64,000 bases of DNA, taken from positions 110,732,001 to 110,796,000 of the forward strand of contig OZ024740.1 of assembly GCA_964016885.1 (NCBI GenBank), read 5' to 3'. Below the pieces are notes generated by a model. The model did no database searches. It was not told where the DNA came from and saw only the letters and a program-made list of their open reading frames with translations. How positions within the stretch are numbered: position 1 is the stretch's first letter; each line of letters opens with the position of its first letter. This document shows positions 1,100 to 59,149 of the stretch, in pieces. The translations under genes and the position numbers were made by a program. This stretch comes from Eledone cirrhosa. Its lineage: Eukaryota.

Positions 1100-1335
1100 G
1101 TGGAATAGGAGGTTAATTATATGTCTAAACGTTGCTAGTGCTGCTGAGATGATTCCAAACGGAAGTTTGGAAAAAACGATTGTTAGCAATAAAATGTTTT
1201 GAACATAGTTTTAATTATTCTATAATTTATATTCCGGCTCTGTAAAACATCTGATATATTTACATTGATCTATTTTTCTTAGTGGTAATAAGGTGGTAAT
1301 GAATTACTGACCTTTCCTGTTTATAATTATATATA
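1100..1335 (+). mobile_element. Decayed PLE pseudo-LTR (family A) with degenerate hammerhead
   Basis: 1142-1188 TGCT-gagatga-TTCCAAAC ggaa GTTTGGAA-aaaac-gatt-GTT-AGCA; homologous to 35815-36390; ends in a TA/TTA tract. Confidence 0.65.
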
Positions 1336-1657
1336 GTGTATATATAAGTATAAATAATATTATTATTATTATATATATATATATTATTATTATATATATA
1401 TTAATATTATTATTATTATTATTATTATTATTATTTTATTATATATATATATATATATATTTCGTTTCTGAATTTGTTTAGCAAGATTCTTTATCTGAAA
1501 ACGTGTGTTGAAGCCGATATTGTTATACGTTGCCAATAAGAAACACACGCACCAGTCTTTTCACTTCAATTTATTATAAATTAAATTTATAAATTTAGGA
1601 ATTTATAAATTTTCGGTTGGTTGGTTGGTTCCACAACCAGACGATTGTTCATATACT

Positions 1658-1698
1658 GTCAAAGTTCTTTCGTCACATTCTGTGACCTCTTCAGTGAC
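1658..1698 (-). ncRNA. Minimal type I hammerhead ribozyme in pLTR
   Basis: Minus strand GUCA-CUGAAGA-G-GUCAC agaau GUGAC-GAAAG aa CUU-UGAC. Confidence 0.75.
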
Positions 1699-1963
1699 TG
1701 GGATTCTTTTCTTTGTTTTTGTGCCTCTCCTTTGTTCTGTCCTACGCCATCTTGTTTTTATTTGTGTTGTGTGCTTAGTTTGCGCATATGTTACATCCGG
1801 CTGTCTGTGTGTGTTTATATTTGTTTATTTATTTGTTTATTTACATGTTACTGGTTGGTTGTTTGTTCTATGTGTGTGTTTTCATTTTGTCCTTAATTGT
1901 AAGTTGTGATGTTGCTATTCCATTCATGCTTTCTATTTAATTTTGGTTGGAGTTCATTTATGT

Positions 1964-2521
1964 TTATTGTCTCTGTGATTTTCTAAACATTGCGTCTTTT
2001 CTGTGTGTAGATTCTATTTTTATTTCTATGTTCTTTAATTCACCCTTATGTTCTATTTTAGCATGTTGGTAGAGTACAGATGATTCTTTACTATCTTGAA
2101 GCTCTCGCCAGTGTTCATTTATCCTTTCTCCTATACTACGAGCTGTCTCACCTATGTACACTATATTCTTATCTTTACATTGTCCTTCACTACATCTTAT
2201 GCTATATACTACATTTCTAGTTTTACAGTTAATATGGGGGCTTAGTTTACAGATTATACATTTCTTATCTATACAGGGAGGTCTTTGAAAAGAGTATGTA
2301 TTGCTAATAAGTGTTTTTATGGAGGTACCTGGTCTTTCTACTATCTTAATATTGAGTTTATATTTATCTAGGGACATTCTGAATTTGTAAGCTAATTCAC
2401 CTCTAGGGGTTGTATTGATGAACATTACACTCTGGTTTTTATTGCTATCATACCATGAGTTTATTCTATTAACTTTATTCCTAGTTCTTTCTATTCTATT
2501 CCAAAATTTGCTCCTATACAA
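1964..2521 (-). pseudogene. PLE Cys-rich linker plus GIY-YIG endonuclease (frameshifted)
   Basis: PCIDKKCIICK...NCKTRNVVYSIRC...YIGETARSIGERINEH. Confidence 0.9.
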
Positions 2522-2581
2522 GGGGCAGGTCCCATTTGTATCCTTATTTACTATTTTTTCCCATTTGGTTCTGGCTCCTCT

Positions 2582-55237: not shown

Positions 55238-55447
55238 GGCGTGTGGCTGTGTGGTTAGACAATTGGATTTGCAATCGTAAGGTTGTGAGTTCGATTCCTG
55301 GACCAGGCGATGCATTATGTCATTGGGCAAGACACTCTATTTCACGTTGCTCCTTCTACCTGGAGTTGCGACCGATAGAGAGTATTAGCAATTGGAAAGA
55401 CCAACGGAAACATTGTTCCCTCGGTCCGATTTGACGAAAGTCGATCG
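55238..55447 (+). mobile_element. tRNA-derived SINE
   Basis: TGGCTGTGTGGTT A box, GAGTTCGATTCC B box, TTGGGCAAGACACT core. Confidence 0.82.
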
Positions 55448-56099
55448 TTCCTTTTTCTTTTATACATATGTATATATATATATATATACATATATATATA
55501 TACATATATATATATACATATATATATATATACATATATATATATATACATATATATATATATACATATAAATATATATACATATAAATATATATACATA
55601 TATATATATATATATATACATTTATATATATATACATATAAATATATATACATATATATATATCTACATATATATATATATACATTTATATATATCTACA
55701 TATATATATATATACATTTATATATATATACATATATATATATATATATATATACATATATATACATTTATACATATATATATATATATATACATATATA
55801 TACATTTATACATATATATATATATATATATATATATATATATATATATATATATTTCATTTGTGTTCTATTCATTTCTCTTTAGTTTCCTTTGTACATC
55901 TATAGGGTCATTAGACAGTCATACCTGTATGATGATACTTTTTCTGATTTAACTGACCAAATATTTACAATATGATACTCTACTTTCACCACGGTCAAGG
56001 CACAGCACACAGCTTGTCAAAAGGGAGAAATAAAATACGTATTCCTTTTTATCATGAAAGAAATACGTAAAAGCGATCCTAAGCCTGGAGGCTCCTCCG

Positions 56100-56350
56100 T
56101 CTAATTCGTTTTCATTGGCGTTAAGCGAATGAGGGACATCCTTCTGGACAGGACGTCAGTCCATCGCAAAGTTAACCCTCAGCTACTGCAAGTATTTATT
56201 TTTAGTCGGAGTAAATTGAAACGAGGAGTAGTTGCCCAAGAACAACTGAAGTAAAGTGATTTACTCAAAAATACATCATGCCAGCCGGTCCAGGAACCGA
56301 GCCCCACGACATTATGATCGTTTATTCAACACCATAACCATTATACCACA
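56100..56350 (-). mobile_element. Old tRNA-derived SINE
   Basis: Minus strand GTGGTATAATGGTT A box and degenerate B box GGCTCGGTTCC. Confidence 0.5.
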
Positions 56351-56656
56351 CGTATTTACCTTATTATGAAATACTAACGTAACGTTTCGGCTGTTATAAC
56401 TTCAGCCTTACTGTTGATGTAACAACCAGGACCTGAACACTAGTTCGAAATAGATCGGCTTATATACATAATAATTTCTCATTTGAGAAATTCATACAAA
56501 ATTTCCACTGATTCTTGAGTGTATGAAGTGTTTCTATTACTTAATTAATTCGGGTTGCGAATCATTGCACTGCTACGCAAATTAGACAAATCAATTTGGT
56601 GATTATTTTGCGCAGACATTATATATATATATATATATATATATATATATATATAT

Positions 56657-56790
56657 GTGGAACACTGGAAGGCTATATCCGTAGTAGTAGAGCACTCAGT
56701 CCATGGGACGAGTTTTGTAGAAGTAGTAACACAACAGTTAGTTCACCATACCGAGAACAAATGTTTCACCTTATGCGGATCGTCAGTCTG
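56657..56790 (-). mobile_element. pLTR family E with degenerate HHR (56752-56790); tails also at about 35440-35520 and 43300-43392
   Basis: CUGACGA-hairpin-GAAAC auuu GUU; shared ACTCGTCCCATGGACTGAGTGCTCTA next to (TA)n. Confidence 0.6.
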
Positions 56791-59149
56791 AGCTGAAGAT
56801 CATTCGCATTACACACACAGACACATATGTACCTATATAAGCATATATATACATATATATTATATATATATATATATATATATTGTACATAAATATATGT
56901 ATATATATATTTATATACAATATATTTATACATAATCATTAGGTCGCGGGCAAGTATCACTTATAGTCATTTCTTCAATGAACTTGGATAAGTGTAAACC
57001 ATTTGGAAGCCCCTTAGATGAATTGTACCTCTAAATCAAAGGCTCAGCCTCGTCATACTGTGTCACGTTGAATCTCCCTTAGAATCGAGTTAAGCGTATA
57101 TTTGTCTGTGGAATACTCAGCCACTTATTAATTTCAAGGTCTGTCTGTTCTGTTAATTGAACAACTGGATTACTCAGCGTAGACAGAGGTCTATCGAAAT
57201 ATATATATATTATATGTGTATACATTTACATTCAGACACACATCTAAATGTGTGTCAATATATATGTGCATACATACACATTTACTTCCCCACCTCTCAC
57301 TCATTTTTATATTTTTGCTCTCTGTTTAATAACTAAATTAAGAGAACCAGACGAGTGTTAATTCATGAGATTTGTTGCCAACTACCATGGGAGTTCTCCA
57401 GTCATATATACTGTCTCAGGCCTATGGAGTTGGAGAATTAGGTTGCCCATAAGCGGAACACTTTATTGTCGATAATTATTTATTTACCACTTAACATATA
57501 GGTAGGCGGCAAATTGGCAGCCAGTGAAATTTCCAAGTCAAACATTGAAATCAAGTCACCCATCTATCTCGGTCTTTTTTCTCACTCTTTCTCTTTATTT
57601 CTCATTTTTCCTCTTAATCTCTCCCCACCCAACCTCTCAAAAATTGATTTTGTTTACTTTTTGAGATAGACGGGCTCCAACAGGTTTAAATGCTCAAGAC
57701 ACGCTTTGTATCACTACGACACGCTATCTGTCATACAGGAGTTAAGACTCAATGTGTGCAGCATGTAGTCATGGTGATAGTAAGCTGCATGACAGAATCG
57801 TTAACAAGTTTAGCAAGTTTATTTCTTGATAATGAAGTTCCGACTTCCATCCCACTGTGTGGCATCTTTCGTACATTTATTTGAATCGACACAAAATATT
57901 TGAATGAAATTGGTGAGACAGGGAACTGCTATTTCTAGCAACAAGACCAGTCACGTAGAAACTTTCTTGTTGAATCTCTCGTTGTTATTTAGCTCTAAAG
58001 TCAGCACTGATCCCAGGGTCTGCTGGGTTTGATACAAATTTATCTTTTTTTTTTCTCTAGGATTACGCTATCCAGTTGTCATTTTCAAAAGGTTGAGATT
58101 TGAGGTGGATGACTGCTATATTTTAGCAGATACTCAATAGGTGCCTTTCTAGTGAATCTCGAGTTCTTAAGTTATATTTTGCTATGGGACCTAAACACCC
58201 GATGGAGTCGTAGGGGCGCCGTCGTGATAAACGGAGTTTTTCAAAATCTAGCGGATGCTATCACTTGCCATGTCATAGCACAGTCGTTTACTCTCAGAGA
58301 AAGCAGACACATTAGAGAACAAAACAACGTATTTATAGCGGTCGACTGATGAGAGGGGACTTCTGTGTTTCGTTCGTTTTCCCGGTGTCTTCGCACTTAT
58401 TATATATATATATATATATATATATATATATATATATATGAGAGTATTGAAGTTTGCTTGAAGCATTGTGGAACAATAAGTAAATATCTTTAAGTCGTTT
58501 GGAAGCCTCGACAATGCAAATGGGTAAATATCCGGGTAACAAGGTCCGGTGGTGGAGAGAGAGATGTAAGTTGGTGTACGTTGAGATGCGTGGTGTGTAT
58601 AAGATGTGTGAGATGTGTAGAATGAAGGGAAGAGTATCAAGGATAAAAAAAATAACAACACAAGAGAGAGTTACCTTGGGAGAGATTTAATAGTCCCTAT
58701 ATATTTCGGATTCACATCCATCAACTGGGATTTTTTTCTGGAGTGGGGGAAAGTCCGGAACGCGTCTTTCGCTGTTTGTTGATTTGAATATATACATGTA
58801 TACACGCACACACACACACATCATATATATATAAGTAAGGGGAAAATGGAGGGGGGGTCAACTCGGTGGGATTTGAACTCAGAGTTTATACGAAAATCAC
58901 GAAGCATTTTATCGGACGTTCTAACTAAATGCTTTGGAGGTAAAGCTGTACGAAATAGAAATGTTTGCTTTGTAAAATAACTCAACTGCATTTAACATCG
59001 TTTATTTACAGTTCTTTCACAACTTATATCTATCTGATCTGCGAATTCTTTCATTAAGATTAATTTACATTGGCACACAATGTCAATACGTCTCTGGTTT
59101 CATTTAGACACACAATAATTTCTGTTACGATATTGATAAGGCTTCGTGG

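Follow-up and report, generated by a model that had tools for sequence, protein, structure and literature searches.

Hammerhead motifs in a 64-kb window of the Eledone cirrhosa genome: ends of Penelope-like elements and ORF-less units with a Penelope-like insertion footprint

What are the hammerhead ribozyme motifs that crowd a 64,000-nt stretch of the Eledone cirrhosa genome (contig OZ024740.1, positions 110,732,001 to 110,796,000; hereafter the window), and how did they arrive beside (TA)n microsatellites? The window, which is AT-rich with abundant microsatellites, comes from a 3.0-Gb assembly with four contigs longer than 370 Mb. A sequence-only reading had listed 20 motifs and proposed that they belong to about ten unrelated, non-autonomous families without an open reading frame (ORF). 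Our analysis led to a different picture, to which we give a probability of about 0.8: the hammerheads lie near the 3′ ends of (TA)n-inserted Penelope-like elements (PLEs), and the same enzymes likely copy three families of ORF-less units (Ci, D, and E, the putative circles) from a circular or multimeric RNA template. Families are designated by letters, and their coordinates are summarized in Table 1.

Hammerhead motifs exceed chance expectation

A type I hammerhead was defined by the core segments C3-A9, G12-A15, and U16-H17 together with three stems. All 20 listed sites carried this layout, 17 with CUGANGA and three with CCGAUGA (36012 on the minus strand, 36298 and 53810 on the plus strand). 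A strict descriptor returned six matches in the window, of which five coincide with listed sites; 60 dinucleotide shuffles gave a mean of 0.03. A relaxed descriptor, tuned on the window after inspection to admit an additional base before or after stem II, a long stem II, and U4C and U3-A8 cores, returned 13 matches, every one a listed site, versus a mean of 0.25 and a maximum of 1 in 40 shuffles. The listed sites that failed had point lesions in the stems (4197, 19558, 36298, and 48198), a truncation at the core with a broken stem III (19128), or a stem I of only 2 pairs (25577 and 29386), the last of which recurred in 10 rows of family B. The often palindromic stem III noted in the sequence-only reading was upheld; ACGCGCGT (5393) is part of a separate palindrome outside the 20 sites. 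Further CUGANGA...GAAA pairs that fail the descriptor occur at 56786(−), 47809(+), and 18192(−), and the segment 56618-56747 is repeated at 43298-43438.

The relaxed descriptor was then applied to an independent sample, made up of 79 segments of 10 kb placed at round coordinates, where it gave 80 matches versus 5.0 after shuffling. The net density of 0.95 per 10 kb (bootstrap 0.63 to 1.29) extrapolates to about 280,000 hammerhead motifs in the genome (190,000 to 385,000), and the window is about twice as dense as the sample (P ~0.05). When compared with our family library, 35 of the 80 matches were assigned (29 to PLE families and six to putative circles) and 45 were unassigned; 403 descriptor matches over all collected loci fell into 37 clusters, the majority assigned to neither kind. 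One further clade, with a UUGAUAA (U3-A8) or CUGA core, a self-complementary stem III of 5 to 6 bp, and a tandem spacing of 317 to 319 nt (L058:2932, L138:572 and 870, and L124:671), is probably another retrozyme group.

The sequence-only reading had placed almost all cores against (TA)n, and this applies to the end of the element rather than to the core itself. A TA run lay within 350 nt 3′ of the core at 18 of the 20 window sites, versus 35% of random positions, and downstream of 26 of the 34 cores in the first 40 sample stretches, versus 21%. TA content was similar in the window (44.7 bp/kb) and the sample (36.8 bp/kb), and the hammerhead families occupy 17.8 kb of the window. No hammerhead model of Rfam matched the window among the matches listed (150 of 168), and these families are therefore probably mislabelled when such genomes are annotated for repeats; in six loci searched, none of these models reached its gathering score. 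Rfam microRNA matches in the window were rejected as microsatellite artefacts. We conclude that the motifs are real and that both kinds involved are known, namely hammerheads at PLE termini and non-LTR (long terminal repeat) retrozymes, with self-cleavage predicted; the identification of minimal type I hammerheads of the PLE type was upheld.

Seven of ten families are ends of protein-coding PLEs

In the genome searches, the best 40 candidates were scored for each family and 12 to 30 loci were taken with 1.5-kb flanks; the fractions given below refer to these top matches. The proposal that all elements are ORF-less was contradicted within the window, as ORFs for reverse transcriptase (RT) and GIY-YIG endonuclease (EN) sit between the two A hammerheads and between the two B hammerheads, and the families are not all mutually unrelated, as A, A2, and B share 68 to 70% identity. 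The A and B frames are broken here, with weak Pfam matches below cut-off, and A2 (core 54558) is assigned to PLEs by its 69% similarity to A. Elsewhere, G copies carry RT, a CX4CxxC linker, and EN upstream on the same strand in 10 of 30 cases, one with a 775-aa (amino acid) open frame ending in EN. Same-strand EN was likewise found upstream in 4/25 copies of F, 5/15 of J, and 6/20 of C, the C hammerhead in other copies having a U3-A8 core and a 6-bp stem III. For H, EN appeared in 0/20 ribozyme-anchored copies, but in 12/20 when the search was anchored 0.5 kb upstream. These results, namely the ORFs of A and B, the endonuclease upstream of other G, F, H, and J copies, and the relationship of A2 to A, indicated that seven of the ten families (16 of the 20 sites) are truncated or fold-back 3′ ends of protein-coding PLEs. 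A protein-coding PLE could thus be linked to A, B, F, G, H, and J, no such partner was found for Ci, D, and E, and the label of non-autonomous ribozyme element stands for these three (four sites) only.

The linker motifs assigned the protein-coding families to two groups. A, B, and G have a CX4CxxC linker ahead of EN, within the CX2-5CxxC pattern, and are of the Neptune or Nematis type. C, F, H, and J have a CxCX5C linker with CxxC and CxH around a conserved E and N, and are Hydra-type PLEs rather than Poseidon-type ones. Among 53 database homologues of C, in which alone the N-termini were read, RWK or RWR was present in 39 and DKT in 40. Family G is very young, with at least 40 matches, all on one contig, that show 100% identity over 126 nt. 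An ORF beside the G tail in one locus (L013) was considered as the start of G itself and rejected, being absent from seven fetched G regions.

That all ten families could be non-autonomous ribozyme-bearing retroelements, as originally proposed, gains some appeal from the 16 of 20 sites that have no adjoining ORF in the window and from the three families that are genuinely ORF-less. We now consider it highly improbable: it is refuted directly for six families, by the ORFs of A and B in the window and by the continuation of G, F, H, and J into endonuclease elsewhere, as also seen for C, and less directly for A2, through its 69% similarity to A. Moreover, palindrome centres vary among copies, which fits repeated formation from a parent rather than from one short master. 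The same palindromes could be taken for DNA transposons of the MITE (miniature inverted-repeat transposable element) type with long terminal inverted repeats, since they are near-perfect, 200 to 450 bp long, and flanked by TA runs. This explanation is scarcely credible and already contradicted, because the arms are unequal with a tail on one side only, the centres are variable, and the palindrome sequence continues into RT/EN ORFs elsewhere.

Several other palindromes lie in the window. One of a further family, with stem III ACGCGCGU, spans 5191-5434, and its complete copies elsewhere (L074, L174, and L226) have a CCGACGA core. Others lie at 49643-49815, 50062-50349, and 54094-54206, the last two beside (TA)n; the last consists of A tail only, and no hammerhead core was seen in the first two.

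Ci, D, and E are ORF-less retrozyme-type units

The remaining four sites belong to Ci, D, and E, which wrap round on themselves with units of 533, 625, and 438 nt and whose longest ATG ORFs encode 27, 40, and 84 aa, respectively. No PLE protein match was obtained in them beyond a query artefact. Copies longer than one unit made up 15/20 of Ci, 13/20 of D, and 7/25 of E, and Ci and D included copies with two complete hammerheads one unit apart; no E copy with two intact direct hammerheads was seen, despite its more-than-unit copies. The 3′ end fell at one site in 14/20 Ci and 18/20 D copies and among a few sites in E, and it ran into (TA)n in 15/20, 18/20, and 18/25 copies, respectively, while 5′ ends were scattered. 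We therefore classify Ci, D, and E as ORF-less non-LTR retrozymes. An autonomous parent for the Ci clade was looked for and not found; the sole same-strand EN (L259) looks like a nested insertion.

The Ci clade comprises five subgroups, 70 to 88% identical, with units of 498 to 551 nt (17 units). Across 27 rows collected by homology, two-sided change was seen in 8 of 23 hammerhead pairs, which answers the call of the sequence-only reading for stem covariation, and in 14 of 118 predicted pairs of the whole Ci unit. In the hammerhead alignment 93.9% of cells were paired versus 27 to 41% in slid controls; the shuffle control ignores relatedness. Circular folding gave z-scores of −3.5 for Ci, −3.1 for D, and −11.0 for E (25 shuffles). 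In the predicted monomer folds of E and Ci the core pairs with stem III and would be inactive, whereas the long stem III of D is predicted to form.

An alternative origin for these units, as satellites from PLE terminal repeats that expanded locally by DNA recombination rather than through RNA, has been offered as a scenario in 10.64898/2026.07.22.740005, and short tandems of two to three units do exist here. It appears very unlikely for the present families, whose copies lie on many contigs at 95 to 100% identity, terminate 3′ at fixed sites on (TA)n and 5′ at scattered ones, carry inverted arms in E and Ci, and reach 2.6 units in the longest copy seen.

Two further families, L (young; 37018-37647) and K (older, with 81 to 91% matches; 54947-55038 and 58324-58400), have in common CUGAUGA, GGGAC(U), and a CCCAUAUUUU end before (TA)n, and lack a GAAA half. 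No full hammerhead was found in L even when a stem II of 520 nt was allowed. The shared motif is possibly a half-core as noted for Naiads, or some other RNA motif.

Inverted arms and junctions reveal a PLE-type footprint

The PLE families combined 5′ truncation, an inverted arm, a one-sided tail, and a (TA)n target. Inverted 5′ arms were counted at 25/48 junctions of G (10 ran off the locus) and in 11/20 cases of C, 11/25 of F, 9/20 of H, and 3/15 of J, and also at 28/46 junctions of E, 11/20 of Ci, 9/15 of Ci3, and 8/13 of Ci4. Only 1/35 junctions of D and 0/15 of L were inverted, their 5′ ends mostly joining (TA)n directly. Ci, D, and E carry the PLE insertion footprint: their 3′ ends are fixed on (TA)n, their 5′ ends are scattered, and copies longer than a unit occur, with inverted arms in Ci and E only.

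Of 110 direct head-to-head junctions, 109 joined arms of the same family. The exception is the Ci|C junction in the window (5686-5716), which has a 14-nt fold-back and a 2-nt overlap, with both outer ends on (TA)n. Being one in 110, it was treated as a one-off, and retrozyme-PLE chimeras were rejected as a general route.

These same-family junctions raise the idea that the hammerhead is a module with three uses, in which stem III would pair two RNAs of one family for a PLE dimer, a TATA promoter in stem II of C would give transcripts that begin with half a ribozyme, and long-lived protein-free circles would ride along, at a motif density that would be a record. Stem III pairing would explain the 109/110 same-family junctions, as well as the near-absence of inversion in D, whose stem III is a closed hairpin, and in L, which has no stem III. 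We consider this proposal unlikely. A requirement for stem III pairing is opposed by Naiads, which invert without canonical hammerheads (PMC8557442), by A, which inverts despite a very weak predicted stem III duplex, and by the stem III of D, which could also pair intermolecularly.

5′ ends cluster upstream of the predicted cut sites in G and C

Over all loci, 21 of 64 G 5′ ends lay at −73 and 15 of 76 C 5′ ends at −41/−40 relative to the predicted cut site, and TATA-like boxes begin 31 nt (G) and 29 nt (C) upstream of these pile-ups. For C, both the box and the pile-up are within hammerhead stem II. With a query starting at the cut site, 17/30 G arms began 64 to 73 nt upstream of it. From these positions we infer that the pile-ups would be transcription starts and the short palindromes copies of the RNA leader. 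Hairpin stalling was rejected as the cause of the short G copies, because the ends accumulate at the 5′ rather than the 3′ foot of the hairpin.

Among copies longer than a unit, starts between −3 and +25 of the cut site were found in 7/33 of Ci, 4/12 of E, and 0/17 of D, in a range picked post hoc (p ~0.01 for Ci and ~0.07 for E), while 15/33 such Ci copies extended beyond the upstream cut site. The Ci and E starts give a weak hint of cut templates alongside many read-through ones.

Such read-through bears on another explanation, in which hammerhead folds are kept mainly as signals for RNA pairing or protein binding, cleavage would be slow or not needed, and RT would copy multimers that had not been cut instead of circles. 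Consistent with it are the 15/33 Ci copies that pass the upstream cut site, the lack of a sharp 5′-end pile-up at cut sites, the core-stem III pairing predicted in E and Ci monomers, and catalytic mutants that had no effect on insertion in vitro (PMC11167929). It conflicts with catalytic nucleotides that are almost invariant while the stems covary, with the U3-A8 core swap fixed in C, and with the 7/33 Ci and 4/12 E long copies starting near the cut site within the post hoc range. On balance we hold it to be possible but doubtful.

A model for insertion

The analysis establishes family membership, upstream ORFs, unit lengths, fixed 3′ ends, inverted arms, and covariation in the Ci clade, and from these we infer the following steps. 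A PLE RT/GIY-YIG protein would nick both (TA)n strands; priming downstream of the hammerhead, at either of two fixed internal positions, would leave a tail on one arm only, and two cDNAs joining head to head would give inverted arms. A TATA promoter within the terminal repeat of G and C may produce RNA, and copying of the RNA leader as far as the 5′ end would yield the 200- to 450-bp ORF-less palindromes of an autonomous element. The ORF-less units Ci, D, and E would arise from tandem transcripts that dimeric hammerheads (possibly monomeric in D) cut before ligation, and RT running round the unit would generate copies of 1.1 to 2.4 units with scattered 5′ ends. The suggestion that PLE RT/GIY-YIG mobilises these elements is thus retained in its tie to (TA)n targeting and likely PLE enzymes, and given up as to a separate non-autonomous class covering all families.

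Several points weigh against this model. Cleavage, transcripts, and circles are predictions from sequence; many cores are atypical (U4C, or 10.1-11.1 unpaired). PLE minimal hammerheads are poor cleavers (PMC4209133), and eight of nine Xenopus retrozyme dimers were without cleavage (10.64898/2026.07.22.740005). U4C and a U10.1-U11.1 mismatch are described natural variants (PMC3088659). No autonomous partner or upstream ORF of their own was found for Ci, D, and E in the copies examined, and D and L, having almost no inversion, possibly use another enzyme or mode. The 3′ ends of the putative circles fall on short UAUA-like motifs, and the RT start of Anolis Poseidon is not homologous to its target (PMC11167929). 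No 5′ end lay within 4 nt of the cut site in 30 copies each of D, E, and G, by a query that misses downstream-trimmed ends, and linear templates starting exactly at the cut site were rejected for these families. Finally, A, B, F, H, and J showed no promoter-like 5′ pile-up over the loci examined.

Features of the window

Table 1. Hammerhead-bearing and related elements, in window positions
Feature	Span (strand)	Core(s)	Description
H-relative 3′ end	1092..1369 (+)	near 1147, degenerate	decayed
PLE A	1462..4127 (−)	1694	5′-truncated; broken RT/GIY-YIG ORF 1964-4127; hammerhead in 3′ untranslated region (UTR), predicted cut after 1662; tail; ends on (TA)n
A, inverted 3′ arm	4128..4394 (+)	4197, damaged	ends on (TA)n
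Ci	5535..5686 (−)	5667	0.3 of 533-nt unit; long branched stem II; stem III ACUAAUUAGU; head to head with PLE C
PLE C	5688..8350 (+)		5′-truncated; RT and EN, 1.2-kb 3′ UTR; 59 nt of U3-A8 hammerhead lost; absent from the earlier list
D	8403..9064 (−)	8729	1.08 of 625-nt unit; long stem III; predicted cut after 8662
E	19128..19717 (+)	19128 (truncated), 19558	1.35 of 438-440-nt unit; another dispersed repeat interrupts 3′ end
PLE F 3′ end	20979..21232 (−)	21173	Hydra-type
PLE G palindrome	24826..25239	24979(−), 25041(+)	two 3′ ends, Neptune/Nematis-type; one-arm tail
PLE B	25341..29649	25577(−), 29386(+)	A relative; minus arm 25341-27905 with RT and EN; plus arm from 27908; 2-bp stem I
PLE H inverted 3′-end pair	35785..36395	36012(−), 36298(+)	Hydra-type; CCGAUGA cores
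Family L	37018..37647 (+)		1.2 of ORF-less 532-nt unit; CUGAUGA, no GAAA half; fixed 3′ end on (TA)n
C-end palindrome	43559..43788		begins inside hammerhead stem II; 5′ half of core absent
F-subfamily inverted pair	44291..44635	44527(+), complete	left arm half ribozyme
Second G palindrome	47921..48350	48114(−), 48198(+)	
Second C palindrome	48360..48554		half-hammerhead
F 3′-end inverted pair	50950..52006	51140(−), 51908(+)	
PLE J inverted 3′-end pair	53348..54064	53810(+)	Hydra-type; CCGAUGA core, 95-nt stem II region; left arm only GAAA half
A2 3′ end	54322..54600 (−)	54558	

Other repeats accompany these elements. A dispersed repeat of about 200 bp, which we take to be SINE-like (short interspersed element), is present in many copies and often inserted into hammerhead elements (19700-20129, 34878, 35594, 36547, and 60334-61693). 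A partial tRNA-like match above gathering score at 44212-44266 is probably the head of a SINE. The window also holds a zf-RVT fragment (16537-17154), an opposite-strand frame pair (11493-12201), and a 550-bp inverted duplicate at 95% (9094-9647 and 52631-53184).

Comparison with known systems

The precedents for our model are PMC4209133, PMC8557442, PMC11167929, and PMC7229834. The terminal hammerheads resemble those of PLE pseudo-LTRs (Cervera and de la Pena 2014, PMC4209133) in their short stem I, palindromic stem III, extra base after A9, and U3-A8 variant, and the elements likewise are mostly truncated and form opposite-strand pairs 100 to 700 bp apart. They differ from that description in the extra base before G12 in many families (10.1-11.1 unpaired), stem II inserts of 50 to 95 nt, family-wide U4C (H and J), and the 6-bp stem III of C. 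The estimated density is far above the 4,000 to 9,000 per genome of that study, though the descriptors differ; published counts, also from other descriptors than ours, are lower, with about 9,000 for X. tropicalis (PMC4209133), more than 6,000 for a coral and up to 120,000 retrozymes for axolotl (PMC7229834), and 235 Rfam matches for giant squid (PMC6962438). Recently active Penelope families are described in Octopus vulgaris (PMC13282606), in a main text that does not use the word "ribozyme", and the mostly open-access literature consulted held nothing on octopus or cephalopod hammerhead PLE or retrozyme families, nor on a stem II promoter.

With the Hydra and Neptune/Nematis clades (Craig et al. 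2021, PMC8557442), our families share the linkers, C-terminal GIY-YIG, (TA)n targets, and a tail at one end, and the inverted, 5′-truncated arm is the PLE structure of that study. Tails here reach about 190 nt versus 30 to 40 nt in those clades, and 3′ UTRs reach about 1.3 kb. Hammerheads of Hydra families, possibly with relatives of the present ones among them, are listed in the supplements of PMC8557442. The TATA promoter proposed here would lie upstream, in contrast to D. virilis Penelope, whose promoter is internal and lacks a TATA box (PMC2377424).

In the in vitro chemistry of Anolis Poseidon (Frangieh et al. 2024, PMC11167929), two internal RT starts would account for the tail, cutting and extension take place on both strands, and the predicted dimer fits inverted arms, so that two-strand cutting and two start sites match the footprint seen here. 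Poseidon belongs to another clade, its hammerhead overlaps the ORF start, and its RT start is not target-homologous.

Ci, D, and E resemble animal non-LTR retrozymes (Cervera and de la Pena 2020, PMC7229834; Li et al. 2026, 10.64898/2026.07.22.740005) in being ORF-less and low in GC, with one type I hammerhead per unit and short tandems, and their unit lengths fall inside the 51- to 972-bp range of Li et al. Unlike known retrozymes, they are mostly dispersed insertions of 0.3 to 2.4 units with a PLE footprint, and PLE terminal-repeat homology was looked for and not found. Their units are longer than the experimentally shown retrozyme circles of 170 to 400 nt, our own circles being predicted from sequence.

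Mobilisation of animal retrozymes by PLEs has been proposed from co-occurrence and sequence similarity, and Li et al. leave its mechanism open. ORF-less units with a PLE footprint, young families, and two insertion modes supply defined RNA/protein pairs for an in vitro test and make this suspected but undemonstrated link directly testable, while the 5′-end pile-ups suggest a position for the PLE transcription start with respect to the ribozyme, a point relevant to the still unsettled function of PLE hammerheads. The features that go beyond the literature consulted are the density of motifs, the promoter-like accumulation of 5′ ends, the PLE footprint on the putative circles, and the existence of two insertion modes.

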